DNA from: a virus
Virus record (IMG/VR): IMGVR_UViG_3300037311_000008
Span: 1 to 42,669 of that record
Strand: one strand, 5' to 3'
Length of the DNA: 42,669 bases
A model generated the notes under the pieces. It ran no database searches and was not told the origin of the DNA. It saw only the letters and a program-made list of their open reading frames with translations. Below, piece by piece: positions 2,648 to 23,912 of the stretch (positions within the stretch are counted from its first letter, which is position 1; every line of letters begins with the position of its first letter). The position numbers and the translations under genes are program-made.

Positions 2648-5266
2648 ATGAGTTTATTGTCACAGAGAAATTTAGCAGGCGGCGAATTAGCTCCAGCTCT
2701 CTATGCGAGAGTTGACACTATTAAGTATCAAACTGGAGTTCGCAAGGCTCGCAATGTGACAATTATTCGTTCTGGCGGAATGCAGAACAGACCAGGAACT
2801 CGCTTCATCGGAGAAGCAAAGCAGACAGGGATATCGACTTCTCCGCGCCTTATACCTTTCGTTTTTAACGCCGATCAAACTTATATGCTTGAGTTCGGCG
2901 ATGAGTATATGAGAGTTATCCGAAACGGAGCCTACATTCTTGGCGCGACAAAAAACATCACAGGAGCGACACAAGCTTCTCAAGTTGTTATAACGTCAAC
3001 AGCTCACGGCTACTCTAATGGTCAAGAAATTTATATTTCAGACATCGACGGAATGATTGAACTTAATGGTCAGAACTATCTTGTTAGTGATGTAACTGCC
3101 AACACATATAAATTAAAATACTTAGATGGAAGCTATGTCAACTCGACTGGCTTCACAGCTTATTCTGCGAATGGATTGTCTGCTGTGATTTATGAGATTG
3201 CAACTCCTTATTCTGTTGATGAATTGATGGATATTCAATTCGCTCAGAGTGGCGATATCATAACAATAGTGCATCCTAATTATTTCCCTTATGATCTTTC
3301 ACGTTTAGATCATGATGACTGGACTCTCGCGCCGAAGGTTCTTGAGCCATTGATAGGTATTCCTGCGAGTGTGAGCTTTACTGATGGAACAGGAACTCCT
3401 GTCATTTATAATTATCAATATCGAGTCTGCGCGGTCGATGCCGACACATACGAAGAAGGATTCTCTGGAGACTCTGCGACTCTTTCTGGAATCAACGAAC
3501 CAACATCAACACAGGTTCACACTGTCACATGGTCTTCGGTCGCAGGCGCGGCTTATTATAATATATATGTTGTTCGCTCTGGAAACATTGGCTTTGTTGG
3601 CTCTTCCACTACTACAACATTTATTAACTACGGAATCACTCCTGATTTTACAAAAACTCCCCCCATTGTTGACACATACTTCACTCCAGCAGAAGATCAA
3701 ATAAGACCTTCGTGCGTGAATTATGCTCAACAAAGATTGATCTTCGGAAATAATAATTATGTAGCAGGAACCCTTCAGCCGGAAGAGATAAGAACGTCTC
3801 GAACTGGTTTATATAATAACTTTTCAACTTCGATTCCACGTCAAGATTCTGATGGAATCAGATTTAGAATGGCAGGAAGACAGGTCAATGAGATCAGACA
3901 CATCCTTGATCTTAACCGTCTTGTCATTATGACTTCTGGCGGAGAGTTTACAATCGAAGGCGGAAATGGCGGAGTTCTAACTCCAAGCGATATTAACGTG
4001 AGACAATATTCTTATCATGGTTCATCTAAGAGACCGCCGATTGTCATTGATTCAAATGCAATTTTTGTTCAGGCGCGTGGTTCTATCGTTCGAGACTTTG
4101 GCTTCGACTATACTGTAGACGGATACAAGGGGAATGATTTAACTGTCTTCTCAACTCATCTATTTGATGGATATGAGATTTTAGACTGGGCTTATCAGAA
4201 GACACCTAACTCTGTTGTGTGGGCTGTGCGCGACGATGGGAAACTTATTTCTCTAACGTATATTCGAGAGCATCAAATATGGGGATGGACTCAACACGAC
4301 ACTGATGGCTTTGTTGAGCGAGTTAGTGTTATTCCAGAAGGTATAGAAGACACTTTATATATGGTCGTTCGCAGAAATGTAAACGGTCGAGAAGTGAAGT
4401 ATGTCGAAGCAATGGCGACTCGTTTTATTTCTGATGTAAAAGATATGGTCTTTATGGATTCCGCTCTATCTTATGACGGAAGAAATACAGACACAGGCCA
4501 TAATTTAAAAATAACTAATCTCGGCGGCTCATGGCTTGCTCTTGAGAATGTGGCAGTGGAATCAAGCGTTGCCATGTTTAATGCAGCAAGTGTCGGCCAG
4601 AAGCTTCAGATCACAAGCGCAGATGGAACGTCTTATGTAGTGTGTGAGATTGTCAGTATCTTCGATTCGCAGAATGCTGTTGTATCTCCAGACCGAGATG
4701 TGGCTTCTCCACTAAGAGCAATTAACACGACGAACTGGGTTCGCGCAGTTAGAACTATAAAAGGTCTTCGACATCTTGAAGGAAAGAACGTCTCTCTTCT
4801 GTGCGACGGCGATGTGGTCGGAAGTCCGAACAATCCTGATAACGTAGTTGTGACTGTAGCTAATGGACAGATAACTCTTGATGATGCTTATGGGGTCATT
4901 CATATAGGTCTGCCATATATTTCAGACATCGAGACTTTATCCATTGATTCGGCTAACTCTGAGTCTTTAGTGAATAAAAAGATTCTTATAAATCAAGTAT
5001 GGCTTCAGGTCGAAAAGACTCGCGGAATGTGGGCAGGGACTACTCCTGTGTCTGATAGTGCCGCAACAGCTATTGACGGATTGATTGAATTTAAGCTTAG
5101 AGATGATGAGAACTATGATGACCCTGTGGCTTTAAAGACTGGCGTGATGGACGTTGCCACAGAGTCAACTTTCAATGACAATGGGAGAGTGTTCTTAAGA
5201 CAAATTGACCCATTGCCAATGACGGTTTTAGGAATACATCCAGCAGGCGATATTCCAATTAGATAA
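2648..5266 (+). CDS. Tail tubular protein B / nozzle-like protein (T7 gp12-like position and size)
   Basis: 872 aa, directly upstream of the three internal-protein genes. The N-terminus MSLLSQRNLAGGELAPALYARVD..RLIPFVFNADQTYMLEFGDEYMRV resembles podovirus tail-tube proteins from memory. Nested ORFs in other frames are ignored. Confidence 0.6.
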   Translation: MSLLSQRNLAGGELAPALYARVDTIKYQTGVRKARNVTIIRSGGMQNRPGTRFIGEAKQTGISTSPRLIPFVFNADQTYMLEFGDEYMRVIRNGAYILGATKNITGATQASQVVITSTAHGYSNGQEIYISDIDGMIELNGQNYLVSDVTANTYKLKYLDGSYVNSTGFTAYSANGLSAVIYEIATPYSVDELMDIQFAQSGDIITIVHPNYFPYDLSRLDHDDWTLAPKVLEPLIGIPASVSFTDGTGTPVIYNYQYRVCAVDADTYEEGFSGDSATLSGINEPTSTQVHTVTWSSVAGAAYYNIYVVRSGNIGFVGSSTTTTFINYGITPDFTKTPPIVDTYFTPAEDQIRPSCVNYAQQRLIFGNNNYVAGTLQPEEIRTSRTGLYNNFSTSIPRQDSDGIRFRMAGRQVNEIRHILDLNRLVIMTSGGEFTIEGGNGGVLTPSDINVRQYSYHGSSKRPPIVIDSNAIFVQARGSIVRDFGFDYTVDGYKGNDLTVFSTHLFDGYEILDWAYQKTPNSVVWAVRDDGKLISLTYIREHQIWGWTQHDTDGFVERVSVIPEGIEDTLYMVVRRNVNGREVKYVEAMATRFISDVKDMVFMDSALSYDGRNTDTGHNLKITNLGGSWLALENVAVESSVAMFNAASVGQKLQITSADGTSYVVCEIVSIFDSQNAVVSPDRDVASPLRAINTTNWVRAVRTIKGLRHLEGKNVSLLCDGDVVGSPNNPDNVVVTVANGQITLDDAYGVIHIGLPYISDIETLSIDSANSESLVNKKILINQVWLQVEKTRGMWAGTTPVSDSAATAIDGLIEFKLRDDENYDDPVALKTGVMDVATESTFNDNGRVFLRQIDPLPMTVLGIHPAGDIPIR

Positions 5267-5275
5267 GGAGGAAAG

Positions 5276-5824
5276 ATGGCAGCAATAGGAATGGCGGTCG
5301 GAGCCGGAATCGGCGCGATGAACTCAATTTCAAATGCCTATGCTCAGTCACAGGCAATCAAAGCGCGAGCTACTTATCAGGCTACTATCGCAAAGATTAA
5401 CACTGAGATGTCTACAATGCAGGCGGAAGACTCAATTCGCCGTGGTGACATTGACGCTAGAAACTATCAGAAAGAAGTCGATCAGATGATTGGCTCTCAG
5501 CGCGTGGCGTATGCAGCTCAAGGGGTCGATGTGGACTTTGGTTCTGCCGCCGCAATTCAGGAAGAAACCAGAATGCAAGGCGCGATTGATGCTTTAAAGA
5601 TTCGCAATAATGCGTGGAGAGAAGCATGGGGTTATCGAGTGGAAGCTAACAATTCTACTTTCGCAGGAGAGTTCGCAAAGATCGAAGGCAAGAGCGCAGC
5701 TAAGCAGACTTTGTTGACAGGCGGAATGCAGGCTCTAAGTTATGGAGTGCAGGCTGCAAGCTACGCATCAAATTCAACGATGTTCGCTCCTACGAAGAAA
5801 AGCTCTGCCGGATACCAGAATTAA
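5276..5824 (+). CDS. Internal virion / ejection protein (T7 gp14-like position), N-terminal Gly/Ala membrane helix
   Basis: 182 aa with AAGGAGG RBS. MAAIGMAVGAGIGAMNSISNAYAQSQAIKARA is followed by helical repeats. The N-terminus is paralogous to 32987..33346. Confidence 0.6.
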   Translation: MAAIGMAVGAGIGAMNSISNAYAQSQAIKARATYQATIAKINTEMSTMQAEDSIRRGDIDARNYQKEVDQMIGSQRVAYAAQGVDVDFGSAAAIQEETRMQGAIDALKIRNNAWREAWGYRVEANNSTFAGEFAKIEGKSAAKQTLLTGGMQALSYGVQAASYASNSTMFAPTKKSSAGYQN

Positions 5825-5834
5825 GGGGGAATAG

Positions 5835-7517
5835 ATGCCAACAGTTCCAACACTAAACAGGCCAGTTCAAGATGCAGCTCTTCCTAATGCAAGAGTCAAA
5901 GACCTGACAAGCGTCGAGACCTTTGGCGGCGGCGAGAGAGTCGCTGCTGGCTTTCGCGCTTCCACTCAGCTCGCTCAGCAGGGCGCTGAGATCATAGAGA
6001 ATGAAGCCAAGAGAGCAGATCAAATTCAGCTAACTCAAGCTTATGCTGATGCGATGAAGGCTAAGAATGATCTTATGTATAACCCGAAGAGTGGCGCAGT
6101 CACTCGAAAGGGTCGTGATTCGTTTGGTGCTATGGAAGAGTATCTTCCGCAATTCGATCAAAGAATGCAGGAGATTGAAGACCGCCTTGGGAATGATCGA
6201 CAAAAAGGACTCTTTGCTGAGATAAAAACAAAACAGAAAGTTGATTTTGACGGCGATCTTCAGAGACACATTTTTAAAGAATCTCAAGAATACGATGCGG
6301 AGACATTAAAATATGGTCTCGATGCCGCTCGAGAAGATGCGCTTTTAAACTATCAGACTCCTGGAAAAGTAGGCGAAAGCATCTTTGCTCAAAAAGCTTT
6401 AGTGATGAACCATGCTAAGAACAATGGTCGATCTCCTGAGTGGACTGAGATGACATTGAAGAAGATTGAAAGCGACACACATAAGGATGTGATGGAGCGA
6501 ATGCTTGCTAACGGCGAAGACATGAAAGCCAGCATTTACTTTCAAACTGTAAAAGAATCTTTAACTGGAGACACAGCCACTGCACTTGAGAAGTCTTTAG
6601 AAGAAGGTTCTTTGCGTGGAAACTCTCAGCGCATTGTTGATGGGCTTGTTCAAAAACATGGTTCCTTGACTTCGGCCATGAGAGAAGTTCGTCAGATCGA
6701 AGACCCAAAGCTAAGAGACTACACACAAGATAGACTCAAGTCTGAGTTCTCTTTGCGTGAAGCTGAAAAGAAGAACTATATTGAGAACCTTGAACGAGGA
6801 GCTTATGACATCGTTGATAAAACTGGAGACCTTCGGCAGATTCCGCCGTCTCAATGGTCACAGTTCGATGGGGGAACTCGAGCGGCTTTAAAGAGATACG
6901 CTGAAGAAAAGCGTGGCGGCGGTTCTATTAAGACCGACATGGAAACATATTATAATTTGAAAGAGCTTGCTGGCGACCCTGCCACTAGGAAAGAATTTGA
7001 GAATCTTAATCTAATGAAGTTTAAAGATAAGCTTTCAGATGCAGATATGAAATCTTTTATCTCAGCTCAAACTGGCTCGAAGTCTGGAGATGGGAAAGCT
7101 AAGAAAGAGCTTGATGGCTGGCGCACAGATACGCAGATTGTTACTGATGCTTATTCAGCAATGGGCCTTGATAAAAAGTCGAAGTCTGGAAAAGAGAAAT
7201 ATCAGCAGTTTGCTAATCGTGTTGAGCAAGAGCAGATTGCAATGCAAGAGAAGCTTGGAAGAAAACTCAACAATACAGAGATGCAAGAAATAACTGACAA
7301 GCTTAAGATTCAAGTCATCACTGAAAAGGGATTCTTTTTTGATACAAAGAAGCGACTTTTTGAAGTTGACCCTAATGCTGGAGAATACGAAGTAACAGAA
7401 GTTCCACCAAAGGACCGCATGGAAATTGAGCGCGTTCTTCGCAAGTACAACAAGCCAGTGACTGAATCAGCTATCCTTGAGCTATTTACAAAGGGTTTAA
7501 ATAATGTCTCTAAATAA
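5835..7517 (+). CDS. Internal virion / ejection protein (T7 gp15-like position)
   Basis: 560 aa, highly charged and predicted helical. It lies between the small internal protein and the giant protein. No enzymatic motif seen. Confidence 0.55.
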   Translation: MPTVPTLNRPVQDAALPNARVKDLTSVETFGGGERVAAGFRASTQLAQQGAEIIENEAKRADQIQLTQAYADAMKAKNDLMYNPKSGAVTRKGRDSFGAMEEYLPQFDQRMQEIEDRLGNDRQKGLFAEIKTKQKVDFDGDLQRHIFKESQEYDAETLKYGLDAAREDALLNYQTPGKVGESIFAQKALVMNHAKNNGRSPEWTEMTLKKIESDTHKDVMERMLANGEDMKASIYFQTVKESLTGDTATALEKSLEEGSLRGNSQRIVDGLVQKHGSLTSAMREVRQIEDPKLRDYTQDRLKSEFSLREAEKKNYIENLERGAYDIVDKTGDLRQIPPSQWSQFDGGTRAALKRYAEEKRGGGSIKTDMETYYNLKELAGDPATRKEFENLNLMKFKDKLSDADMKSFISAQTGSKSGDGKAKKELDGWRTDTQIVTDAYSAMGLDKKSKSGKEKYQQFANRVEQEQIAMQEKLGRKLNNTEMQEITDKLKIQVITEKGFFFDTKKRLFEVDPNAGEYEVTEVPPKDRMEIERVLRKYNKPVTESAILELFTKGLNNVSK

Positions 7518-10500
7518 GTACGAAGATTTATTGCTACAAGAGAAAGATCAATCTCTCAATCCTGCTGCTGCGCCAAAGGTCGCAGACGGTCCTTATGAGT
7601 CTGCTCTTCAGGAAGAGAGCGCAGGGCTGAAGTCGAACATCGCTCAGTCGATGGAATACGCTAGGGAGAAAGAGCCTACTCGAATGGAGAAGGCTTTGAA
7701 GATGGCTAAGGATGTCGGACTTGATGTCGGCACTGTTGAGAGAAACATGGAGACCATAGAGAAGAAGACGCGCTTTGCTGGCGTGGACTATGAGGCTATG
7801 GTTCGAGACACTCCTGGGGTCGCAAAGTTTATGGGAACTCCTGAGAATGCAGCTTTCGCTCAGAATGATATTGCATCAATGGGTCGCATTGAAAAAGCTG
7901 TCGGCTTTGTTCCAAAGCGCGACACTCCTAAGCCTATGGTCCAGTTTGGCGGAGAGATGGCTCAGGCTGGCGAGACTGGCTGGAACAATTTAAAATCAAG
8001 CATGGCTGGGCTTATGATCGCCTTTGGAAAAGGTGATAGGGATATGATTGTCGCTCAGGCTGAGATGAATAAAAGAGCCAAAGAGCTGTCTGATAAAAGA
8101 CCTGACTACTCGAAAGAGTTCAATGCTGTCATGGCCGAAGAAGGCGGAGATGTTAATAAGGCGTGGAATAAATTTAAGAACGGATTTACTCAATGGTCTG
8201 AAGGAAAGAAGCTTGAGGCTTTAAAGTCGATTGTTGTCGGAGATGTGGAAATGGTCGCAGAAGGTCTTGACCTTCTTCGCCACGCAGTCACTCGACCTAG
8301 AGGATTGACTTATTCAATTTCTGAGAACGCAGTGAATGCAGCTCCTTCTATCGGTCTTGGCGCAGCAGGCGTTCTGACTGGACCCTATGCCGTAGTAGCG
8401 ACCCCTGCTGGCGCGTTCGCTGGCAGTGCTGTCAGTGAGGTCGGTTCTGTTATCAACTCGGCCTTTGAACAGCGCGGCGTTGATATCACTGACCCAGATC
8501 AGCTTGAGGCTGCTTATAAAGACCCAGACCTAATGAAAGAAGTACGCGCTCAAGCCTTGAGAAAGGGTTTAACCACAGCAGCAGTCGATGGATTGTTCGC
8601 CGCTTTCGGCGGTCAGTTTGTTTCTAAAGCTGCAAAGGGTGCGAGTATTGCGAAGAAGACAACTGCCTTTGCTAAGGATGTGGCTGTCGAATCTGCTGGC
8701 GAAGTTGTCGGCGAGTTCTCAGGCCAGATCGCAGAACAGAAGGGCGATCTTTCTAAGGTCGATCTTGGTTCAGCCATTCAAGAAGGTATCACTTCCTTAG
8801 GTCAATCGACCATTCAGGCAGCGTCTTCAGCATCAGCCAAAAAAGCCTTTGCTGCTAGAAAGCTTTTTAATAAAGACCCGATGAAAGCAACAGATGAGCT
8901 TCTTCAAAAAACAGATCAGTCAATGGAGACTTTGCAGAATGCGGTCGCTCTTGATGAGATGGGAAAAGCCATCAAAGAAACAAAGAGTTTAAAGAATATT
9001 CCTGAAAAGATTTCTGAGCTTGTTGAAGCCGCGACTGGCGGTCAAGGCGCTGCCGCCGTTTACTTTCAGGCAGATGACTTTGATAGTTATTGGAATAAGA
9101 AGGGCGCGAACCCTTTAGAGAAAGCTGCTGAGATCATGGGAGATAACGGCAAGGCTTATCAAGAAGCGAAAGACGCTGGCGGCGTTATCGAAGTTCCGCT
9201 TGAGAAGTATGCGGCAAGCGTTGGTGTGACTGAAGACTTTGACGGCTTATTGCCAGTAACTCGCACAACTCCAGACGGAATGAGCCTTGAAGAAGCTAAG
9301 GAACACATGGCTTCTCTTCCGGGTTTAATGAAACAGATTGCAGAAGAAGCTACGCAAGTTAATCAAGAAGTGGCTCCTCAAGAGCAAGCCATTGAGCAGA
9401 AAGCTCGAGGGGTTAAAGATATAGTTCAAGAAAGGCTTGTTGCTGCTGGAAGACCTACACGCGAAGCCAAGTATGCGGCGGAGCTTGTTGAAAGATCATT
9501 TACAAATATCGGTCAGAGAATGGGATTCTCTCCTGAACAGTTCGTTGAGTTCGCAGACAAATATCTTCCTAAGATAAATCAGCCTACAAATGAAGAGCAA
9601 GTTCAAGAGCAGGAAGTCATGTTCAATCAATCAGTCAAGGCTCAATTCTATTCTAAGCTTGAATCAACTGTTGAGCAGAAGATGGGCGGAGCCGCAAGTT
9701 CTCAGCAGCTTGAAGGAATGCTCAGAGACATAAAGCCAGAAGAGATGAAGTGGTCTGGACTCGGTGACTTCTTAAAAACTAAAGAGAAATTTACAAAGCA
9801 GGAAGTTGTGGACTTCTTGCGAGCGAACGCTTTGAAGATTGAAGAAGTAACTAAAGGAGTTGAGACTCCTGCATTAACTGAGCAGGAGCAAGCGCGGCTT
9901 GATGAGCTTTACACTATAGATCAAGGAGACATGACCGACGCTCAAGTGAATGAAATGCTGATGCTTGAGAAGAAGCTTGATAGGGCTGCGCAGAATAAGC
10001 CGCGAACAAAATATGAAAAGTATAAACTTCCTGGCGGAGATAACTACAGAGAACTTCTCTTTACTCTCCCCCCAAGAGCTGTCACAACTGCCACGGCTGA
10101 AGAGATTGGCTCTATAGACACATGGGAGTTCAAAGAAAGAAAAGCTTTTAAACAGGCTCCAAAGCAAGAAGTTGAATCTAACGAAGAGTACGCAAAGGCG
10201 AAGAAGAAACTCGCGAAGGATGTTAAGAAGCAATATCCTGAGATGAAGCCGAAGGAAATCTCAAAGACTATTGATGATGTCATGGAGTCTTTCGAGATGA
10301 GAGAAGGCGAAGACATCTCTGGACTCGACACAACTCCAGAGCTAATGACTAAGTTTAAGGAGCTAAAGACTCTTTATAGATCACTTCGCAATCCATATCC
10401 AAACGAAAAGACTTATCGAAAAGATATTCGAGGAAGACGCTTTCTTTTAGTTGACACAGGTATTCCGCCGAAAGCTGGTCAAGAGTTCACTGGCGTTTAC

Positions 10501-13500
10501 TTTGGCGGAACACATAAGAATCCAAAGGGAATGCAGTTTAATACTGTCGAAGAAGCTCTCGCTTATCTTCCTGAAATGATTGCGGAAGAAGAAGCTAGAG
10601 ATAACTCAGAGAACTACAAGTCATCTCACTGGGATGAAACAAATGTTCTTGCTCATACTCGACTCACTGACCGAACAGATGCTGATGGAAACAAGGTTCT
10701 CCATATTGAAGAGATTCAATCTGACTGGCATCAAGATGGAAGAAAGAAGGGTTATCGCTCTGACTTAAAATCAAGCAAAGAAGAGATTGACCTACTTTCT
10801 GAAGAGATGAAATCTCTTGTCGAGAAATACAATCCTATGTCTCTCGACAATCCAGAGAGAAAGCCTCTAGTCGAAAAATATAAAGAACTCCAAAAAAGAA
10901 AGGGAGAGCTTGAAGAGATTGAATATAATAGTTCACGCGCAGTTCAAGATGCTCCATTCAGAAAGACGTGGCATGAGTTCGTCTTCAAGCGAATGGTTAT
11001 AGAAGCAGTAAACAAAGGCTATTCTAAAATCACATGGTCAACTGGCGAACAGAATGCAGCTTTATATTCATTGGAGAAGCAAGTCGATCATGTTGATGTT
11101 GTTTATAATAAAGACGGAACTTATGACGCTGAAGCAATGAAAGACGGCGACCCAGTTTCAAGTAAAGCGAACATCAAGCAGTCTGAACTAGAAGGATTGT
11201 TCGGAAAAGAACTTGCTCAAAAAATCATAGATAAAGAAGGCGAAGAAGACTCCGAAGGAACTTTTAGATATGAAGGCGATGATTTAAAAGTCGGCGGCGA
11301 AGGAATGAAAGGATTCTATGATAAGATTCTTGTAGACTTCGCCAATAAGTTCGGGAAGAAGTACGGCGCGAGAGTTGAAGAAATACAATTCGGAAAGCCA
11401 GATCAATTAAGAGTAACTCGCATGGGAGATAAGTACGCCATTGTCAACTCTGCTGGCAAAGTTCTTCATTCATACGGTTCAAGAGTAGCGGCTGCTGCTG
11501 CCTATGAAGAGTTATCTGGCGGCGGAGATTCAGTTAATTATTCGATGAAGGCTCATTCTCTTGAGATCACTCCAGCTCTAAGAGACGCAGCTTTAACTGA
11601 AGGCTTTGCTCTATATCAAGGCGGAGCAGACAATCCTCTAGGTCAAGTGAAGTTCGGGAAAGATGGAATCAACATTGATCTTCTTCGAGGAGCTAACCCT
11701 TCGACATTCATTCATGAGATGGGTCACGTCTATCTTGAAATGATGAAAGACCTTGCTGGAAAAGCAGAAGCTCCTGAACAAGTGAAAGAAGACTTTAAGA
11801 AGGTTCTAAATTTCCTTGGCGTTGATAGCGCAGAAAAGATCGGAGTCGAACAGCATGAGCTTTTCGCTCGCGGCTTTGAAGCATACTTGAGAGAAGGGAA
11901 AGCTCCAACAGAAGGATTGAGAAAAGCCTTTGCTAACTTTAAAGCATGGCTGATGACGGTTTATAAAACATTGACTCAGCTTCGAGTTGAACTGACTGAT
12001 GAAGTTCGCGGAGTCTTTGATAGACTTGTGGCTTCTGATGAAGAGATCGCCGAAGCTTTAAACCAAGTCACAGCAGACCTTGATCTTTCAAAGCTTGATG
12101 TTCCGACAAAGAAGCAAGAAGAACATCTTCAGGCTATCGCAGAATGGAAAGTCGCAGCCGAAGAGAATCTGACTCAGAAGTTGATGTCTGACTATGATCG
12201 CGCTCAGGCTTCTCAGTATAAAGAAAGAAGAAGCGTTGTTGAATCTCAAGTGGAGAAAGAAGCGAATCAGCTCATAGTCTACAAAGCTATTTCTCTGTTG
12301 AAAGACGGAACTCTTCCTGATGGGTCTCCGCTTCCGCAAGGAGTATCTTCATTCAAGCTTGAGCGATCTTCTATTGAGAACCTATTCTCGAAAGAAGTTG
12401 TGGCTCGCCTTCCATCAAGAACTGTTGCTCCATTAAAGTCTGGCGGCGGAGTTGATGTTAGAGTGGCAGCGTCTATGCTTGGCTTTGAAGACGCAGATCA
12501 GATGATTCAAGCTTTGTCGAACTCTATTCCGAAACAAGACTACATAAAAGCGCAGACCGATGAGCGCATGAAGAACGAATATCCTGACCTTTATGACGAT
12601 GACAGAGACCGTTTAAAAGCCGAGGCCATGAGTTATGTGCATGATGAGATGGGCGCGAAGGTCAAGAGAATGCAGCTTGAAATGATTGCAGAGAAAGCGA
12701 TGCCTGTTCTTAAAGAAGGAATCAGAAACGTAGCTCGCAGACTTCCATCAGATCGACAAGTCAAAGCTCAGGCCATGAAGATTGTTGGCTCTAAGCAAGT
12801 TCGAGATGTGAAGCCGATTGTATTTTTGAGAGCTGAAAGAAAAGCTGCGAAGGATGCTGGTATCGCTCTTGCTCGCGGAGACTTTGAAGCGGCTTATAAG
12901 TTTAAAGAGAAAGAGCTTTTCAACTTTGAGCTTTACAGAGCTTCAATCAATTTCAATAACGAATACAAGAAGCGTCTTCAGAAGGCGAAGAAGATATTCA
13001 AGTCTGATGAGAAGATGGCAAAGACTCATGACATGGATTTAATAAATGCCGCTCGCGCCATGTTCGCAGAGTATGGAATCGGGAAGCAAGGCAAGACTCC
13101 AGATGAGTTCCTAAGCAAGATGAGAAGCTATGACCCAGAGACCTATGAAATGATCTCAGGCTTGATCGAGTCTTCAATGGTTAAAGCTAACTCACTTGAG
13201 GAGATGAGTGTCGATGACTTCTTCGCCTTTACTGATGCGGCTTTCGCGGTCGTTGATCTTGCTAAGACTTCAATGGAACATATTGTTGATGGCAAGGCTT
13301 TAAACAGAGAAGATGTCATCAATGATCTTTCTAACACTCTTGGCGAGAAGACAAAATCATCTGAGCGCGTAGGCTTTGACCGCAAGGCTACAAAATGGGA
13401 AGAGACAAAGATGGCTCTTCTCGGGGTTAAGGCGCATCTCACTCGCGTTGAACAACTGACTGAAGCTCTCGGCGGAAACTTCAAGAAGATGTTCTATCAG

Positions 13501-15483
13501 CCAGTCTCTGATGCGATTGTCAATTATAAGATGAAAAGAAAAGAGAAGATTAGAAAGTGGAGAGACCTGACTCTTGAATACTCCAAAGAGCAGCCTGATG
13601 TGTTCAAAGAAAAGAATATAAAGGCGGAAGAGCTGGCTCGCACAGACGCTGATGGGGTCAAGAGATTCTACACATTCAAAACCAAAGGCGATCTTATTGG
13701 CGCACTTCTCCATGTTGGAAACGAGAGCAACAAGAAGAAGCTTCTCGCTGGTCGTAAATGGGGAACCATGAATGACGATGGAACTATCAACTCGCAAGCG
13801 TGGGATTCTTTTATCAAGAGAATGCACGACGAAGGAGTTCTTGTTAAAGCCGACTGGGATTATATACAGTCAGTCTGGGATTTAATGGAAGAGATGAAGC
13901 CAGATTCTCAGAAGGCTCATAAACAAATGTATGGATATTATTTCAGTGAGATCACAGCAGAGTCTGTCGTGACTCCGTTTGGAGCCTATCGCGGCGGCTA
14001 TGTTCCAGCAAAGGCTGACCCATTCTTATCTGAAGATGGCAGAATAAGAAACGACAAGGACGCTTTCGAGAAGCTCAATAACACATTCATGTTCCCGACA
14101 ACAGGGCGCGGCTTCACTAAGAAACGTGTTGAGCATTATGCTACGCCACTCTCGATTGATCTTAAGCTTGTTGGAAAGCACATCGACCAGTCGATGAGAT
14201 TTACATACATTGAACCAACAGTGAAATCTGTTGCTCGAATTGTTAATGACAAAGGCTTTAGAGAAACTATGTCTCTTTTTGATTCAACAATGGCTTCGGA
14301 AATTTTTATTCCTTGGCTTCAGAGAGCAGCACAGCAGAAGGTCACAACTCCAGGCTCATCTCGCGGTATGGATTTATTCTGGTCTCGCTTGAGAGCGAAT
14401 GCTGGAATGAATGCAATGTTTTTAAACGTGACGAACGCGCTCCAACAGTTCACAGGCTGGTCTATTTCTATGCTGAAGGTGTCGCCAAAGCATTTAAGAA
14501 GCGGCTTCTGGACCTATTTTAAATCTCCGAAAGCGTCGGCGAACATGGTCGCAGAGAAGTCTGCTTTCATGAAGAGCCGTCTTGATGGGGAGATGAATGA
14601 GTTAATGCAAGAAATGGATGAGCTTCTATCTGACCCGAACAAATATGACCAGTTTAAAGTCTTCGCTCAGAAGAACGCCTATATTCTGCAAAGCGGCTTT
14701 CAAAACTGTGTTGATGTGGTGACGTGGATTGGAGCCTATGACCAGTCAGTTTCACAGGGTATGGATGAGAAGACGGCAGTTCGAGAAGCTGATGCTGCTG
14801 TCAGAACAACACAAGGCTCATTGAATGCCGAGGATGTTTCTCGCTTTGAAGTCGGAACTCCGTTCTTTAGAGTGTTCTCAATGTTCTATTCATACTTTAA
14901 CAATCTCGCCAATACTCTTGCCACTGAAGGATATTATAAAGCGATCAGAGACATGGGCTTACGCAAGGGCGCAGGCAGAGCGATGTTCGTTTATATGTTT
15001 GGCTTCGCTATTCCTGCCGTGATGAGTGAAGTTATTGTGCGAGCTATGTCAGGAAAAGACTGGGATGAAGATGATGATGACGATGTTCTTGATGACTTCG
15101 CAGGCATCTTCTTTGGCTCTCAGTTTAGAACAGGAACGGCGCTTCTCCCTGTTGTCGGCACAACGGCTGCTCTGGTTTATAACCAGTTCGACGATGCTGT
15201 GTATAATGACAGACTATCAACATCTCCAGCCATCTCTTCTCTTGAGTCTGCCGTTGTTGGAAACGCGAAGACGGTTCAGGCAATTTTTGATGAAGATAAA
15301 GATGTCAGTCCTAAGAGAGCGACTAGAGACTTTTTAAGCGCCGTCGGACTCATGACAGGTATCCCAACAGGGCAGCTCGGAAAGACAACAGGTTACTTGA
15401 TAGACGTGTCTGAAGGGAAGGCTGAACCAGCAGGGCCAGTCGATGCAGTTCGAGGAGCAGTCACAGGGAAGTCGCCGCGATGA
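7504..15483 (+). CDS. Giant internal/ejected polyvalent protein (2,659 aa) with HEXXH zincin-like core and C-terminal membrane segments
   Basis: Uninterrupted 7,980-nt ORF in the T7 gp16-like position. HEMGH at nt 11713-11727 with downstream HELFARGFEAYLREGKAPT. Block HTRLTDRTDADGNKVLHIEEIQSDWHQDGRKKGY (EEIQSDWHQ at nt 10708-10734). Gly/Ala hydrophobic segments at about nt 8340-8640. Two hydrophobic helices flank DWDEDDDDDVLDDF at about nt 14960-15180. Confidence 0.85.
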   Translation: MSLNKYEDLLLQEKDQSLNPAAAPKVADGPYESALQEESAGLKSNIAQSMEYAREKEPTRMEKALKMAKDVGLDVGTVERNMETIEKKTRFAGVDYEAMVRDTPGVAKFMGTPENAAFAQNDIASMGRIEKAVGFVPKRDTPKPMVQFGGEMAQAGETGWNNLKSSMAGLMIAFGKGDRDMIVAQAEMNKRAKELSDKRPDYSKEFNAVMAEEGGDVNKAWNKFKNGFTQWSEGKKLEALKSIVVGDVEMVAEGLDLLRHAVTRPRGLTYSISENAVNAAPSIGLGAAGVLTGPYAVVATPAGAFAGSAVSEVGSVINSAFEQRGVDITDPDQLEAAYKDPDLMKEVRAQALRKGLTTAAVDGLFAAFGGQFVSKAAKGASIAKKTTAFAKDVAVESAGEVVGEFSGQIAEQKGDLSKVDLGSAIQEGITSLGQSTIQAASSASAKKAFAARKLFNKDPMKATDELLQKTDQSMETLQNAVALDEMGKAIKETKSLKNIPEKISELVEAATGGQGAAAVYFQADDFDSYWNKKGANPLEKAAEIMGDNGKAYQEAKDAGGVIEVPLEKYAASVGVTEDFDGLLPVTRTTPDGMSLEEAKEHMASLPGLMKQIAEEATQVNQEVAPQEQAIEQKARGVKDIVQERLVAAGRPTREAKYAAELVERSFTNIGQRMGFSPEQFVEFADKYLPKINQPTNEEQVQEQEVMFNQSVKAQFYSKLESTVEQKMGGAASSQQLEGMLRDIKPEEMKWSGLGDFLKTKEKFTKQEVVDFLRANALKIEEVTKGVETPALTEQEQARLDELYTIDQGDMTDAQVNEMLMLEKKLDRAAQNKPRTKYEKYKLPGGDNYRELLFTLPPRAVTTATAEEIGSIDTWEFKERKAFKQAPKQEVESNEEYAKAKKKLAKDVKKQYPEMKPKEISKTIDDVMESFEMREGEDISGLDTTPELMTKFKELKTLYRSLRNPYPNEKTYRKDIRGRRFLLVDTGIPPKAGQEFTGVYFGGTHKNPKGMQFNTVEEALAYLPEMIAEEEARDNSENYKSSHWDETNVLAHTRLTDRTDADGNKVLHIEEIQSDWHQDGRKKGYRSDLKSSKEEIDLLSEEMKSLVEKYNPMSLDNPERKPLVEKYKELQKRKGELEEIEYNSSRAVQDAPFRKTWHEFVFKRMVIEAVNKGYSKITWSTGEQNAALYSLEKQVDHVDVVYNKDGTYDAEAMKDGDPVSSKANIKQSELEGLFGKELAQKIIDKEGEEDSEGTFRYEGDDLKVGGEGMKGFYDKILVDFANKFGKKYGARVEEIQFGKPDQLRVTRMGDKYAIVNSAGKVLHSYGSRVAAAAAYEELSGGGDSVNYSMKAHSLEITPALRDAALTEGFALYQGGADNPLGQVKFGKDGINIDLLRGANPSTFIHEMGHVYLEMMKDLAGKAEAPEQVKEDFKKVLNFLGVDSAEKIGVEQHELFARGFEAYLREGKAPTEGLRKAFANFKAWLMTVYKTLTQLRVELTDEVRGVFDRLVASDEEIAEALNQVTADLDLSKLDVPTKKQEEHLQAIAEWKVAAEENLTQKLMSDYDRAQASQYKERRSVVESQVEKEANQLIVYKAISLLKDGTLPDGSPLPQGVSSFKLERSSIENLFSKEVVARLPSRTVAPLKSGGGVDVRVAASMLGFEDADQMIQALSNSIPKQDYIKAQTDERMKNEYPDLYDDDRDRLKAEAMSYVHDEMGAKVKRMQLEMIAEKAMPVLKEGIRNVARRLPSDRQVKAQAMKIVGSKQVRDVKPIVFLRAERKAAKDAGIALARGDFEAAYKFKEKELFNFELYRASINFNNEYKKRLQKAKKIFKSDEKMAKTHDMDLINAARAMFAEYGIGKQGKTPDEFLSKMRSYDPETYEMISGLIESSMVKANSLEEMSVDDFFAFTDAAFAVVDLAKTSMEHIVDGKALNREDVINDLSNTLGEKTKSSERVGFDRKATKWEETKMALLGVKAHLTRVEQLTEALGGNFKKMFYQPVSDAIVNYKMKRKEKIRKWRDLTLEYSKEQPDVFKEKNIKAEELARTDADGVKRFYTFKTKGDLIGALLHVGNESNKKKLLAGRKWGTMNDDGTINSQAWDSFIKRMHDEGVLVKADWDYIQSVWDLMEEMKPDSQKAHKQMYGYYFSEITAESVVTPFGAYRGGYVPAKADPFLSEDGRIRNDKDAFEKLNNTFMFPTTGRGFTKKRVEHYATPLSIDLKLVGKHIDQSMRFTYIEPTVKSVARIVNDKGFRETMSLFDSTMASEIFIPWLQRAAQQKVTTPGSSRGMDLFWSRLRANAGMNAMFLNVTNALQQFTGWSISMLKVSPKHLRSGFWTYFKSPKASANMVAEKSAFMKSRLDGEMNELMQEMDELLSDPNKYDQFKVFAQKNAYILQSGFQNCVDVVTWIGAYDQSVSQGMDEKTAVREADAAVRTTQGSLNAEDVSRFEVGTPFFRVFSMFYSYFNNLANTLATEGYYKAIRDMGLRKGAGRAMFVYMFGFAIPAVMSEVIVRAMSGKDWDEDDDDDVLDDFAGIFFGSQFRTGTALLPVVGTTAALVYNQFDDAVYNDRLSTSPAISSLESAVVGNAKTVQAIFDEDKDVSPKRATRDFLSAVGLMTGIPTGQLGKTTGYLIDVSEGKAEPAGPVDAVRGAVTGKSPR

Positions 15484-15538: not shown

Positions 15539-17068
15539 ATGTCAATAGCATTGAACGATAGAAGAAATGACTACACTGGCAACAACACGACAATTCAATT
15601 CTCTTATGACTATCGCATTCTTGCTGAAGACTATTTGAAGGTTGTTGTCACTGATCTTGATGGAGTCGAAACTGTTTTGACTCTCAATACAGACTACACT
15701 GTGGCAGGCGTAGGCTCTTTGTCTGGCGGCTACGTTGAACTTGTCGATGCTAACCAAGCGTGGCTTCACGCATCTCTTAATGGCTTGAAGACTGGTTATA
15801 CAATAACTATTAACGGTCAGACTCCAGTGACTCAAACGACCGACATTAGAAACCAAGGTCCTTACTATCCATCTCTTCATGAAGACGCGCTTGATAAACT
15901 AACCATGATTGCTCAAGAGCTTGTTGCTACTGTGAAACGCGCTCCGCTCTTTAGATATGCGACAGGCGTTGTTGATCGCGTGTTCCCGAACCCAGACCCA
16001 GGAAAAGCAATTATATGGGGTCCGACAGGACAGCTTGAGAACACAGAAGTTGATATCAATGCTATAGATCAGGCCGTTAGCGATACGACAGCAAGTGCTG
16101 CTGCTGCTCTAGCTTCTGAGACGGCTGCTGCCGCGAGCGAAACTGCCGCCGCCGCTAGTGCGTTGGCTGCCGATGCGAGCGCAGATGCTGCTGCTGTATC
16201 CGAAGCGAACGCTGCTGCTGCCGCTGCTGGCGGAAATATAATTAAATACGCAGACTATGGTTCTGTTTTGAATGCTGACCTGACTATTCCTAATACGTCG
16301 GCAACATATTCAATCATCCCAATAAACTCCCCTGCCGCATCAAGAACAATAACTCTTCCTCTTGCTAACACATATCCTAGAGGACGTGTGTTCTTTATTG
16401 TTGATGTTGGCGGAAACGCTGGCGGCTTCCCTATCACTGTTCAGAGATCAGGCTCAGACACAATAGAAGGTTCGACATCTGTTTCAATCAATGCCGCAAG
16501 AATGGGAAGAACATTCACCTCAAATGGAGTTGATGGATGGCTTGTTTCCACAATTAAACAGCAAGAAGTAGGCAGTGCTCAGCTTGCTGATAACGCCGTA
16601 ACTACTGCAAAGATTGGAGCTAACGCTGTCACTCAGGCAAAGAGAGCAGCTCTAGGTCAGCAAGTTAGTTCAAGCTCTGGTTCATTCTCAACTACAAGCA
16701 CAAGCTTAATAGATATCACTAACTTATCTGTGACCATAACAACAACTGGCCGTCCAGTTTATATATGCTTGGTGCCGTCATTGACCGCTGCAAGCAGAGT
16801 GGCTGCGAACAGATCGACAACAGCACTTGTCGCGCAGGCAGAAATAACATTTGTTCGAGATGCAACAACTGTATTTGTGTGCGACATGAGTATTGATGCT
16901 TCAAGTTTAAGTTCTACTTCTGCATATCTCTCAATGCCTACATCTATGTTTAGCCAGATAGATACGCCAGCAGCAGGAACATACGTTTACAAGGCTCGCA
17001 CTAGAGCTTTAACTACAAGCACAACTGTCTCTGTTACTGAGGCGCGTTTATTTGTTTACGAATTATAA
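15539..17068 (+). CDS. Tail fibre (T7 gp17-like position)
   Basis: 509 aa. An N-terminal domain is followed by an Ala-rich coiled segment SAAAALASETAAAASETAAAASALAADASADAAAVSEANAAAAAA (nt ~16090-16230) and a Ser/Thr-rich beta C-terminus. It follows the ejection proteins as in T7. Confidence 0.75.
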   Translation: MSIALNDRRNDYTGNNTTIQFSYDYRILAEDYLKVVVTDLDGVETVLTLNTDYTVAGVGSLSGGYVELVDANQAWLHASLNGLKTGYTITINGQTPVTQTTDIRNQGPYYPSLHEDALDKLTMIAQELVATVKRAPLFRYATGVVDRVFPNPDPGKAIIWGPTGQLENTEVDINAIDQAVSDTTASAAAALASETAAAASETAAAASALAADASADAAAVSEANAAAAAAGGNIIKYADYGSVLNADLTIPNTSATYSIIPINSPAASRTITLPLANTYPRGRVFFIVDVGGNAGGFPITVQRSGSDTIEGSTSVSINAARMGRTFTSNGVDGWLVSTIKQQEVGSAQLADNAVTTAKIGANAVTQAKRAALGQQVSSSSGSFSTTSTSLIDITNLSVTITTTGRPVYICLVPSLTAASRVAANRSTTALVAQAEITFVRDATTVFVCDMSIDASSLSSTSAYLSMPTSMFSQIDTPAAGTYVYKARTRALTTSTTVSVTEARLFVYEL

Positions 17069-18308: not shown

Positions 18309-19514
18309 GTGGCTCGATATAAAATTTCAGAATTAAAAAATGCGGTCGATCTTATTAAAGAGTTCGAGGGTCTTTATTTAAAGGCATACCTTGACCCAGT
18401 AGGAATCCCGACAATAGGATGGGGAACAATCCGTTATCCTGATGATAGTCCAGTAAAGATTGGCGATGTCATCTCTAAAGAAAGAGCCGATACTCTTCTT
18501 GAATATGAAGTGACAAAGTTCATAAACTGGGTCGATCAACTTGTTAAAGTTCCAGTAAACCCGAACCAGTTCGGCGCACTTGTTTCTTTCGCGTACAATG
18601 TGGGCGCTGACATTGACACAGATGTTATTGCTGAAGGTCTTGGAGATTCGACTCTGCTTAAGAAACTCAATGCTGGAGACTATAACGGCGCATCTCTTGA
18701 GTTCGCAAAGTGGAACAAGGCAGGCGGCAAAGTTTTAAAAGGTCTTGTCAGAAGAAGAGAAGCTGAGCGAAAGCTCTTTGTTACTCCAGCGGCAGGCGGC
18801 AATCCTGTTGTTGATACGAAAGAACCAGAGATCGAAACGCCAAACTGGTTTGAGCCATTCAAAAAATGGATTCTTGCTTTAGTCGATGCGGTCTTTGGAA
18901 AGAAAGGCGAAAGCAGTGCTGTTGCTGAGCCGCCGCCTGATGACTTAGCATCTATGATTTTGAAGCAGAACCCTACTATCAGTCGCGCTGCTTTACTTTA
19001 TTCTCTTAAGTTTAAAGACCATGAGAAAGTTAAGAATAAAAAATATCTTTCAATTCTTGATGCGAACAAGCCTGACTATCAATCGCGCTTCCACTTCATT
19101 GACATGAAGACCTTTGTATCAAGAAATGAACTTGCGGCTCATGGCTCAGGTTCAGATAAGAACAAAGACAACATTGCTGAATCATTCTCAAATGTTCCCG
19201 GAAGCTATCAATCATCTCTCGGTCCTATGGTCTTTGCTGAGAACTATGTGTCTGGAAAGAAGAAGACTGGCGACAGAAGTGCTTTTCAAATATCAAGACG
19301 CATTGATGGATTGATTAAAGGTCTCAATGATAAGGTCAGAGCGAGAGCTATTGTGTTCCACGACGGCTTCTATGTGACTCCAGAAAGAGCAAAGATCAAG
19401 AGCGTTGGAGATTCTCAAGGCTGTATAGTTCTTTACTATCCTGTCATTAAAGAGATCAATCCTTTAGTTGAGGGGTCTTTACTTGTGATTTATCATAGCT
19501 CTTTAGAGTCTTGA
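18309..19514 (+). CDS. Bifunctional endolysin: GH24 (T4-type) muramidase plus C-terminal YkuD-like L,D-transpeptidase-fold domain
   Basis: GTG start with RBS GGGGGAAG. The N-terminus EFEGLYLKAYLDPVGIPTIGWGT carries the GH24 E/D/T triad. The C-terminus HGSGSDKNKDNIAESFSNVPGSYQSSLGPMVFAENYVSGKK...RARAIVFHDGFYV...GDSQGC matches the YkuD_2-type pattern, with His351 at nt 19359-19361 and Cys372 at nt 19422-19424. Confidence 0.8.
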   Translation: MARYKISELKNAVDLIKEFEGLYLKAYLDPVGIPTIGWGTIRYPDDSPVKIGDVISKERADTLLEYEVTKFINWVDQLVKVPVNPNQFGALVSFAYNVGADIDTDVIAEGLGDSTLLKKLNAGDYNGASLEFAKWNKAGGKVLKGLVRRREAERKLFVTPAAGGNPVVDTKEPEIETPNWFEPFKKWILALVDAVFGKKGESSAVAEPPPDDLASMILKQNPTISRAALLYSLKFKDHEKVKNKKYLSILDANKPDYQSRFHFIDMKTFVSRNELAAHGSGSDKNKDNIAESFSNVPGSYQSSLGPMVFAENYVSGKKKTGDRSAFQISRRIDGLIKGLNDKVRARAIVFHDGFYVTPERAKIKSVGDSQGCIVLYYPVIKEINPLVEGSLLVIYHSSLES

Positions 19515-19911: not shown

Positions 19912-20000
19912 ATTAACCCCCATATATACATAAAAGAAAAAGAAATATAGACCGCAACAATAGCGATCAGAAGTAGTTGTGCTTTAGTATCTATCTTCAT
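19908..20000 (-). CDS. 30-aa hydrophobic micro-protein (not in ORF track)
   Basis: Hand translation of the minus strand gives MKIDTKAQLLLIAIVAVYISFSFMYIWGLI. ATGA overlaps the recT stop at its 5' end and the next gene's start at its 3' end. Confidence 0.45.
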   Translation of the reverse strand: MKIDTKAQLLLIAIVAVYISFSFMYIWGLI

Positions 20001-20935
20001 ACAGTATCTTCTCCAAGTGCGCGGTCAAGATCATTGCCTTCATCAGCATCAAAGATCGCTGGCCTGTCAATCTCTTCCTCTGGTTCAGGCTCTGGTTCTG
20101 GCGCAGCTTTAGGTGTCACATCCTTGGCTTTCACTGCGTCCTTCAGGCGAGAGCTTGTCTTCTTGGCGATAGGCTCAGCGGCTTGCTCGCTTCCTGATGT
20201 CAGTGTTGGCAGTGAAGATGCAGTCTTTGCGGCCACAACTTTCTCTTGAGGGTCTGGCATGAATAGGTCATCATCTCTTCGGATTGTTTCTTCAACATCT
20301 GTGGACATCGGAAGGCGCTTTGAAAGTCTGCGAATAGCTGTCTTCTTAAACATCTCTTCAGCAAACGGTCCACTCCAAGGGCCAGAGTCTTTAGATCGAC
20401 TCACGTTTTTAACATCAGAGACTTGCTTCTCGGTCATAACTTCAACATAGATCGCGCCGTCTTTAGTCTTAGCTAAAGCGTACACTCCGATGCGCTTCCC
20501 ACGGTCTCCGAACATATTAGGTCTATGCGAGATGTGCTCTCCATCTGCGTCTATATAATAATTAAACTCATCGTTCTCATAAACAATCTGCGATGTGATG
20601 CTTGATAGCTCGCCAGAGTTTCTGACTTTCTTCAAGATGCCGCCGACCATTGGCATATATTGAGCTTGCTTTCCGCTTTTTGAATTGAATGTCACAATGG
20701 CTGCCTCTCTTCCGTCTGGGAGTAGGCCGTCCTGTGCCGCTCTCATGCAGGCAGCAAAGACTGATGGCTTTGAGCATTCCGCAATCGCTGGAGATTGGCT
20801 GATCGCTGTGAGAAGAACGCGAGTGAACTTTTCAACTGGAATGTGTGGAGGGAGAGCTGCTTTGAATTGCGAATCCATCTTCTGAAGAGAACCTTTTAGC
20901 TCATCTACTGGACTCAGTGCTTTAGTTGTTGTCAT
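19997..20935 (-). CDS. recT: RecT-family single-strand annealing recombinase
   Basis: 312 aa. SVFAACMRAAQDGLLPDGREAAIV..YMPMVGGILKKVRNSGE..VYALAKTKDGAIYVEVMTEKQV..MFKKTAIRRLSKRLP is the typical RecT core. The tail is an acidic PEPEPEPEEE stretch. Confidence 0.85.
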   Translation of the reverse strand: MTTTKALSPVDELKGSLQKMDSQFKAALPPHIPVEKFTRVLLTAISQSPAIAECSKPSVFAACMRAAQDGLLPDGREAAIVTFNSKSGKQAQYMPMVGGILKKVRNSGELSSITSQIVYENDEFNYYIDADGEHISHRPNMFGDRGKRIGVYALAKTKDGAIYVEVMTEKQVSDVKNVSRSKDSGPWSGPFAEEMFKKTAIRRLSKRLPMSTDVEETIRRDDDLFMPDPQEKVVAAKTASSLPTLTSGSEQAAEPIAKKTSSRLKDAVKAKDVTPKAAPEPEPEPEEEIDRPAIFDADEGNDLDRALGEDTV

Positions 20936-20936
20936 A

Positions 20937-21699: not shown

Positions 21700-21701
21700 A
21701 A

Positions 21702-22610: not shown

Positions 22611-22685
22611 CGCTTGCTCCCTGTCTTTCTGCCATTGCCTTCTCTCTTTTTGCCATTTATTCTAGTGTGTGGCTTTCCTATTTTT

Positions 22686-23424: not shown

Positions 23425-23426
23425 TG

Positions 23427-23866: not shown

Positions 23867-23912
23867 CCAGCCACATTTATATTTCTTCTTCTCAGTGTTT
23901 ACTGTTGCCGCT

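Follow-up and report, generated by a model that had tools for sequence, protein, structure and literature searches.

A 2,659-residue probable ejection protein of a metagenomic podophage, with an enzyme-like module in the variable slot of a Bbp10-type backbone

The window analyzed here, i.e. the whole stretch of 42,669 nt of the virus record IMGVR_UViG_3300037311_000008 (positions 1 to 42,669), begins and ends with an exact 111-nt direct repeat (positions 1–111 and 42559–42669). Whether it reflects terminal redundancy or an overlap in the assembly, the repeat shows the window to be the complete genome of a podophage, with 42,558 unique bp. The gene under study is a single open reading frame (ORF) on the plus strand at 7504–15483, with 2,659 codons and a stop. 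It occupies 18.75% of the 42,558-bp genome, which confirms the uninterrupted frame and the share of about 19% given by an initial annotation made from the sequence alone. It starts with an ATG preceded by AAGGG 9–10 nt upstream and overlaps the preceding gene by 14 nt. Its product is composed of four parts (aa 1–715, 715–1375, ~1376–1510 and ~1511–2659). It appears to be an ejection protein of the T7 gp16 class (IVP-D, short for internal virion protein D) whose second part, called here the EIQSDW module, is a 660-aa enzyme-like cargo inserted in an otherwise conserved delivery backbone. The features of the ORF are the following (hydropathy is given as the Kyte–Doolittle value over 19 residues, KD19):

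7504..15483, plus strand: 2,659-aa internal virion (ejection) protein, assigned to the IVP-D/gp16 class and to phrog_9880 (Bbp10 family); from the ORF and its translation, phrog_9880 matching over the full length (E = 0)
7504..9648, plus strand: conserved N-terminal part, aa 1–715, common to most family members; phrog_9880 positions 17–652 (E = 5e-41); the family hidden Markov model (HMM) covers Bbp10 aa 37–622
7642..7899, plus strand: LPD22 domain, aa 47–132; PF18834, E = 6.2e-11, 42.8 bits against a cut-off of 28.6
8347..8622, plus strand: Gly/Ala-rich, weakly hydrophobic segments, aa 282–373; KD19 maxima of 1.33 (aa 282–300) and 1.14 (aa 355–373)
9646..11628, plus strand: putative cargo cassette, the EIQSDW module, aa 715–1375, filling the variable slot of the family
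11629..12033, plus strand: zincin-like HExxH module of the backbone, ~aa 1376–1510, with invariant HExxH and downstream Glu
12034..15480, plus strand: alpha-helical body of the probable ejection protein, aa 1511–2659; tblastn matches to Bbp10, phage AF, CP2, Caulobacter phages and others
13990..14019, plus strand: RGGYVPAKAD, the most conserved motif of the body, aa 2163–2172; G2164, G2165, Y2166, P2168 and D2172 invariant or nearly so
14788..15105, plus strand: region of best match to the gp16 profile, ~aa 2429–2534, with the FFRVFSMFYSYFN motif, the hydrophobic helix and the acidic patch; aligned with gp16 (P0361) aa 1086–1182
14980..15051, plus strand: strongly hydrophobic helix, aa 2493–2516, a candidate inner-membrane anchor; KD19 = 1.89 at aa 2494–2512
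15058..15099, plus strand: acidic patch DWDEDDDDDVLDDF, aa 2519–2532; the family is acidic in 55–86% at aa 2521–2527 and in 68–73% at aa 2530–2531

The seven peptide blocks quoted in the initial annotation were all found in the region described: KWSGLGDFL... at aa 749–772, YKLPGGDNYRELLFTLP at aa 840–856, HTRLTD...EIQSDW... at aa 1051–1084, GMKGFYDKIL... at aa 1267–1288, FIHEMGHVYLEMM at aa 1402–1414, HELFARGFEAYLREGKAPT at aa 1451–1469 and DWDEDDDDDVLDDF at the position listed above.

A search with the C-terminal half of the protein retrieved 703 homologous proteins, mostly of 2,000–2,230 aa and encoded on 40–45-kb contigs. These relatives share aa 1–715 and aa 1380–2659 with the window protein but not the middle, and in the phrog_9880 profile the HExxH module lies at positions 951–1095. 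The slot between both conserved parts has a median length of ~204 aa and a maximum of 340 aa in 68 relatives, compared to ~678 aa in the window protein, and it holds ART-PolyVal, PBECR1/2/3, LPD3, GNAT, Zeta_toxin, DUF3990 or DUF6861 domains according to the relative. At the level of protein sequence, this comparison shows a backbone with one fixed slot that accepts interchangeable effector domains. The larger cargo also explains why the window protein exceeds the longest (2,235 aa) of the 120 best family matches. The polyvalent character proposed at the outset was borne out by the LPD22 match (E = 6e-11, above the Pfam cut-off), the domain being present in 17/22 family members scanned, and by the effector domains found at the same position in relatives. 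Likewise, the protein combines several unrelated globular domains one of them an LPD (a domain associated with large polyvalent proteins), with the EIQSDW and HExxH modules both separable. The effectors recognized in the slots of relatives are of the conflict type, whereas the cargo of the window protein itself has no assigned activity.

Judging by comparison of sequences and gene order, the protein is probably an IVP-D-class ejection protein, at a great distance from T7 gp16 itself. The assignment is based on synteny, full-length membership of the Bbp10 family and a profile–profile (hhalign) match to gp16. With respect to synteny, the genes follow the order tubular tail A (phrog_394), tubular tail B/nozzle, gp14-like protein, 560-aa protein, 2,659-aa ORF and fiber, so that the place given to the ORF by the initial annotation, in a row of internal proteins with the nozzle upstream and the fiber downstream, holds. 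The neighboring genes are:

2648-5266: tubular tail B/nozzle, phrog_376
5276..5824, plus strand: gp14-like internal virion protein, 182 aa; PF24072 T7_gp14, E = 1.3e-6, 28.9 bits against a cut-off of 27; phrog_418 internal virion protein
5835..7517, plus strand: 560-aa internal protein at the gp15/IVP-C position; partial matches to 'endolysin' PHROGs
15539-17068: fiber with a T7 gp17-type N-terminus, which matches many T7 gp17-type fiber/spike families

The order of a gp14-like gene, a gene at the gp15 position, the large ORF and the fiber recurs in UFJF_PfDIW6 and BPP-1. Bbp10 of BPP-1 is a full-length match to the family HMM (E = 0; aa 37–622 and 754–2039), and BLASTP to Bbp10 gave E-values of 3e-42 and 5e-40 with 27–29% identity in the HExxH module and the helical body. 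Bbp10 is listed as a T7 gp16 (IVP-D) homolog on HMM–HMM evidence in Table 2 of Hardies et al. (2016) (PMC4819975), who also reported that IVPs host cytoplasm-destined domains, the virion RNA polymerase (vRNAP) of N4 included. A single-sequence comparison with gp16 returned only RGGYVPAKAD against HKGTYVPHVYD (E = 0.028). The gp16 profile, built from 110 sequences of a 50%-identity representative library, was compared with core-only family alignments, since the full-length alignments gave a 2-column hhalign 'match' that is an artifact. The resulting probability was 64–68%, under the usual 90% (E = 4.7e-5 to 6.5e-5, score 56–58, 37–92 columns), and reversed-sequence controls scored 18–19. Weaker colinear matches (E = 0.03) include GxYxPxxxD, the body motif facing KGTY(V/I)PxxYD of the gp16 family. 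gp16-like proteins are described as universally possessing extensive alpha-helix and one or more putative membrane-spanning helices near the C-terminus (PMC8954989). The AlphaFold model of the body and HExxH module (a monomer prediction, aa 1385–2584) is 70% helical in the body with a mean predicted local distance difference test (pLDDT) score of 81.4, and the helix with KD19 of 1.89 is located ~150 aa before the C-terminus, inside a predicted helix at aa 2486–2516 (model positions 1102–1132). Of the two hydrophobic C-terminal helices of the initial annotation, only this first one (aa 2494–2512) is transmembrane-grade, the second scoring 1.12. The Gly/Ala-rich segments that it had called hydrophobic are present as well (Ala 19% and Gly 10% over aa 271–470) but with weak hydrophobicity; T7 gp16 has comparable stretches, a resemblance only. 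Another link to gp16 is provided by P0490, a metagenomic protein of 2,126 aa in which a window-type HExxH module (aa 1116–1269; phrog_9880, E = 9e-20) is followed by a gp16 body (aa 1340–2120; phrog_342, E = 7e-81), indicating that IVP-D bodies of very different kinds can be joined to the HExxH module. The N-terminus of P0490 carries a weak glucosaminidase-like domain (E = 4e-4, below the Pfam cut-off).

The cargo itself consists of block A (aa 715–856), a lineage-specific helical insert (aa 857–1035) also found in P0134, block B (aa 1036–1296), which carries EIQSDW and GGEGMKGFYD, and block C (aa 1300–1375). Sequence searches returned at least 263 clusters of homologs. In 82 sequences with 29–43% identity to the window protein, R1053, E1069, E1070, Q1072, S1073, D1074, H1076, Q1077, Y1272 and D1273 are invariant, as part of ~20 invariant polar, Gly and aromatic residues; such conservation is what an active site or a site of ligand binding would show. 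The AlphaFold model of the module (aa 700–1400) has a mean pLDDT of 80.6, with 372 residues above 90, and shows long helical hairpins, the insert at aa 857–1035 being helical with low confidence. No match to the module was found in Pfam (60 members were scanned too), PHROGs, NCBIfam, PADLOC or, by profile, in PDB sequences. The other segments of the protein were likewise without a match in PADLOC and NCBIfam. A Foldseek search of the model against PDB returned nothing significant (best E = 0.12), and the whole 2,659-aa protein against PDB sequences returned only noise (influenza HA2 coiled coil, E ~0.1). Several readings were discarded: the weak GNAT, GHKL and ABC-transporter Foldseek matches of both models are noise (TM < 0.1); a PD-(D/E)xK nuclease in the module, built on D1056...E1070-x-Q1072, was rejected on the predicted hairpin geometry together with the lack of any nuclease fold match; and GNAT or muralytic enzyme readings of the module gained no support. 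In BFVD, 24 significant matches were obtained, all from uncultured phages, and those with informative names are of the polyvalent type (ART-PolyVal-like, LT_GEWL and 'Large polyvalent protein associated domain').

Elsewhere the module is joined to ART-PolyVal, ddrB-ParB, 2H/Acb1, Zeta toxin, MuF_C, GGDEF and inteins. The initial annotation had stated that its conserved blocks recur in polyvalent proteins, which is true of these partner domains, but the module itself is absent from Pfam, PHROGs, NCBIfam and PADLOC. It can also stand as a separate gene: P0052 (920 aa; 8001–10763 of marine metagenome contig L001) comprises an unknown N-terminal part followed by the EIQSDW module, and its neighbors in this T7-like marine podophage are capsid, tubular A, tubular B, a 192-aa protein, a 628-aa protein, P0052 itself, a 1,038-aa protein and the fiber. 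The same contig recurs in many ocean samples. This location of P0052 among internal-virion genes and the polyvalent-type effectors that accompany the module are consistent with cargo carried in the virion. Only 5/50,697 isolated-phage records contain the module, the best match being in Dolichospermum phage Dfl-JY45 (209 kb; PP438435.1, 69202–71793; 72% covered, 33% identity), a jumbo cyanophage, and so the module is not restricted to podophages. The motif EIQSDW was not found in full-text literature, a comparison that covered texts outside the supplementary alignments of Iyer et al.; the module may be one of their LPDs that never entered Pfam.

The third part of the protein contains HEMGH (aa 1404–1408, nt 11713–11727) within FIHEMGHVYLEMM, followed by E1412 and by HELFARGFEAY at aa 1451–1461. 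H1404, E1405, H1408, E1452 and A1455 are invariant in 113/113 members and E1459 is conserved in 112/113, while position 1412, the fourth residue past the second His, holds Glu in 87 of the 113, His in 14 and Asp in 4. In the model, HEMGH is placed in a predicted helix (model positions 15–35) and E1452/E1459 on the next helix downstream (positions 64–80); a beta-hairpin upstream of HEMGH is modeled at low confidence. Window aa 1370–1837 align with Bbp10 aa 766–1273 (E = 3e-42), the sole HExxH of Bbp10 (aa 797) aligning with HEMGH. This HExxH lies inside Bbp10 aa 700–1000, a seed of the zincin-like CLCA_X family with the consensus HExxHxxxD, related to CLCA_N metalloproteases by profile methods (Lenart et al., 2013; PMC3650047). 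A conserved zincin-type metal site is well supported by these alignments, while protease activity and its substrate are putative. The "HEMGH zincin core" of the initial annotation was half right: the site is real, but it had been joined to the central EIQSDW and GFYD blocks. Blocks A and B occur with HExxH nowhere in the protein in 45 of the best 120 module homologs, so the EIQSDW module is separable from HEMGH, which belongs with the C-terminal half of the backbone, at its N-terminal edge. A profile search for LPD or zincin domains, suggested as a check, recovered LPD22 but neither a peptidase profile nor a zincin fold. Pfam MPTase-PolyVal matched neither the whole protein (E up to 1) nor the segment (E up to 10), and none of 22 family members gave a match to it. 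Twelve clades of metallopeptidases (MPTases) were described by Iyer et al. (2017), so a single Pfam model may not cover them all. The sole match of the segment was a weak one to LPD1 (E = 0.075, profile positions 13–27) on the invariant helix HELFARGFEAYL (aa 1451–1465, nt 11854–11898); from its sequence, LPD1 may be a metal-ligand helix of the zincin-like domain rather than an independent domain. The HExxH module sits directly downstream of the variable slot throughout the family and directly upstream of the gp16 body in P0490. Its constant place right after the slot fits the proposal of Iyer et al. (2017) that the MPTases of polyvalent proteins have a processing role.

Taken together, the gene is best read as an IVP-D ejection protein in which a conserved delivery chassis carries the 660-aa enzyme-like EIQSDW module in its slot, a reading to which we give a probability of about 0.72. 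The steps of the corresponding mechanism, injection, channel building and anti-defense action included, are inferred from work on T7, N4 and φRIO-1 (PMC8954989; PMC13434306; PMC4819975). A few copies would be stored in the core of the capsid alongside the gp14-like and 560-aa proteins and would be ejected through the tail at infection. The helical body with its hydrophobic helix would then insert at the inner membrane and complete the DNA conduit, as proposed for T7 gp16, while the cargo would enter the cytoplasm along with the leading DNA. By cutting the polypeptide, the metallopeptidase-like module next to the cargo might free or activate it or otherwise mature the protein, and the cargo could subsequently act on a host nucleic-acid, nucleotide or defense target. 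The cytoplasm is where the cargos of relatives (ADP-ribosyltransferase (ART), RNases, UNAG kinase and acetyltransferases) have their targets.

Some results weigh against this picture. The match to the gp16 profile stays below 90% probability and covers only ~90 columns, the hydrophobic helix among them. Foldseek of the body model against PDB gave no match with E < 0.1 and no similarity to the T7 gp16 or N4 gp50 structures, with no gp16 entry among the top 50 of 55 matches; as a negative for gp16 this result is weak, since gp16 refolds between states, the structure compared was predicted as a monomer and 3Di captures little of a helical model. On the HExxH segment no Pfam peptidase was detected at E up to 10, and no zincin appeared among the Foldseek-PDB matches. 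Moreover, even members whose slot is minimal, Bbp10 (~130 aa) for one, keep the invariant HExxH, and N4 vRNAP is packaged unprocessed (PMC5512222), so that cargo-releasing self-cleavage is not the sole possible role of the module.

The last two points are also the substance of the best-surviving alternative, namely that HExxH does not process its own polypeptide. It would instead be a protease with other targets (proteins of the host envelope or of host defense, or further core proteins), serving as an effector or in maturation, or else a structural metal site that packaging or ejection requires. The HExxH...E signature is kept in all 113 members whatever the cargo, and N4 vRNAP, which bears an analogous HExxH subdomain C1, requires that region for encapsidation (PMC5512222; PMC13434306). 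The lack of a detected muralytic domain in the internal proteins of the window phage is also compatible with a protease acting on other proteins. Conversely, the position of the module, always directly downstream of the slot and, in P0490, directly upstream of a gp16 body, fits cis-acting processing, which is the general logic of polyvalent proteins according to Iyer et al. On balance, a trans-acting or structural HExxH appears less likely than not, and it is the most probable of the alternatives.

A second alternative leaves HExxH aside and takes the central 660 aa as a structural expansion (a spacer, or an extra tunnel or hub domain) instead of an effector. No enzymatic family or known fold could be assigned to the module, and its long helical hairpins with a low-confidence helical insert at aa 857–1035 would suit such a role. 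Nevertheless, it occurs alone as well as with ART-PolyVal, ddrB-ParB, Acb1/2H, Zeta toxin, MuF_C and GGDEF partners, and it retains the ~20 invariant residues in the 82 low-identity sequences. In addition, the slot holds recognized enzymes in relatives, and family members function with slots of 130–340 aa. A purely structural insert is accordingly improbable.

Even less probable is the proposal that the EIQSDW module is a new periplasmic cell-wall-degrading domain in place of the transglycosylase of T7 gp16 or Bbp11. The initial annotation had seen no lytic-transglycosylase motif in the ORF, and in agreement neither that nor any other muralytic domain was detected. More broadly, none of the three internal proteins of the window phage yielded a virion-associated cell-wall hydrolase, whereas the syntenic Bbp11 of BPP-1 carries one. 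The 560-aa neighbor was considered as the bearer of the missing lysozyme and rejected: it has no Pfam, NCBIfam or PDB match and no detected muralytic domain, and its matches to 'endolysin' PHROGs are confined to the N-terminal, non-catalytic part (10475, positions 1–273/700; 1044, positions 1–220/900). In favor of a muralytic module are its invariant acidic residues, weak Glyco_hydro_46 matches in 4/60 module proteins (best E = 0.0096, position within the protein not located) and the match of the P0052 module region to a 2,564-position PHROG labeled 'endolysin'. On the other hand, that giant family probably owes this label to a different domain, Foldseek did not match the module to the fold of any lysozyme, transglycosylase or amidase, all of them plentiful in PDB, and the slots of relatives carry enzymes with cytoplasmic targets.

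Finally, a fusion of genes by sequencing or assembly error, which the excess over the 2,235-aa family maximum might suggest, is hardly credible, in line with the single ORF of the initial annotation: the frame is uninterrupted, P0134 (colinear with aa 865–2656, 42% identity), P0001, P0003 and P0127 (36–45% identity for the four, from independent metagenomes) span the cargo, HExxH and body junction, P0125, P0146 and others are colinear over the N-terminal part, P0121 from another independent metagenome is 100% identical to aa 1599–2659, and single-ORF proteins of ~2,050 aa are annotated in BPP-1 and UFJF_PfDIW6.

Comparison with known systems places the ejection protein and its cargo between several of them. 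The Bbp10 family, which also includes proteins of Pseudomonas phages UFJF_PfDIW6 and AF, Xanthomonas phage CP2 and Limnohabitans phage DC33, has the same backbone and the same gene position between an IVP-C-like gene and the fiber. Bbp10 (2,052 aa) has a slot of ~130 aa without the EIQSDW module, in contrast to the ~678-aa slot with EIQSDW of the window protein, and its neighbor Bbp11 carries a transglycosylase (L013, 47–2209), whereas none was detected in the 560-aa counterpart. T7 gp16 and the window protein occupy the same gene position, are extensively alpha-helical, possess a hydrophobic helix ~140–165 aa before the C-terminus and share the colinear G-x-Y-V/I-P-x-x-x-D motif, next to the local profile match of 64–68% probability. 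They differ in that the window protein is twice the size of gp16, lacks its N-terminal lytic transglycosylase and carries LPD22, a cargo slot and the HExxH module, all three lacking in gp16; global similarity is undetectable.

The virion RNA polymerase of N4 (gp50) shows the same order of parts as the window protein: a hydrophobic N-terminal domain, a cytoplasm-destined enzyme, the HExxH subdomain C1 and a ~1,100-aa alpha-helical C2 without structural relatives (PMC13434306), its C-terminal domain being regarded as an IVP-D homolog by Hardies et al. (PMC4819975). The cargos differ (RNA polymerase in N4, EIQSDW in the window), as do the genome type and gene order. hhalign against seven N4-like C-terminal domains was not significant (E = 0.04–0.11, score 28–32, reversed control 23), though colinear, HExxH to HExxH. 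No RNA polymerase family was found in the window protein with Pfam, PHROGs or NCBIfam, and a Foldseek match to mini-vRNAP was discarded as noise (E = 0.11, TM 0.07).

Polyvalent proteins (Iyer, Burroughs, Anand, de Souza and Aravind, 2017) are multidomain, encoded among virion late genes and equipped with an LPD domain and a zincin-like HExxH beside effectors, which is also the case in the window family. Conversely, the EIQSDW cargo is not among the polyvalent-protein domains in Pfam, and an IVP-D chassis with a fixed slot is not described in the main text of that paper. As for CLCA_X, the signature HExxHxxx[E/D] of the window family resembles the published HExxHxxxD, except that the acidic residue is Glu rather than Asp in 87/113, and the family has a second invariant helix (H-E-x-x-A-x-x-x-E), unlike the CLCA_X description; proteolytic activity is putative for all CLCA_X members.

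The remaining genome encodes portal, capsid, terminase and temperate-style replication/recombination genes (RecT-like, RecE-like and primase-helicase). A leftward block on the minus strand (19997–24194) contains a RecT-like annealing protein (19997–20935) and a RecE-like exonuclease (21702–22610), and the primase-helicase is located at 26804–29236; no RNA or DNA polymerase was detected among the large ORFs of the window. This combination points to a podophage of the BPP-1/UFJF_PfDIW6 type rather than a T7-like lytic one, possibly with a temperate lifestyle. No near-identical DNA to the window was found among the 50,697 phage records. Downstream of the fiber, a 401-aa lysis enzyme (18309–19514, plus strand) joins a Phage_lysozyme domain (aa 17–153, E = 1.5e-42) to a YkuD_2 L,D-transpeptidase catalytic domain (aa 226–395, E = 4e-28), an unusual pairing in one endolysin.

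The underlying concepts are already published: that IVP-D proteins host domains bound for the cytoplasm (Hardies, 2016), that polyvalent proteins contain MPTases and LPDs (Iyer, 2017) and that the HExxH of Bbp10 is zincin-like (Lenart, 2013). What is new here is a large, enzyme-like and uncatalogued cargo, a record size for the family and a quantitative description of how many cargos share a single fixed slot. It is conceivable, at somewhat less than even odds, that the module represents an undescribed enzyme family with a new fold, carried in the capsid and injected as an early effector (e.g. against host defense or nucleotide signaling); the Bbp10-type backbone would then be a plug-in delivery chassis of which N4 vRNAP is the best-known special case. 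Short-tailed phages push proteins into the cell ahead of their DNA, and the largest such protein of this family would double as a carrier, accepting many different enzymes at one fixed position beside a conserved protease-like site. This offers a concrete, testable model of first-strike effector delivery and may provide a scaffold for engineered protein delivery. As the cargo is common in metagenomes (at least 263 clusters and 24 BFVD models) and nearly absent from cultured phages, a phage that bears EIQSDW in a defined virion protein would be a good entry point to the function of this cargo.

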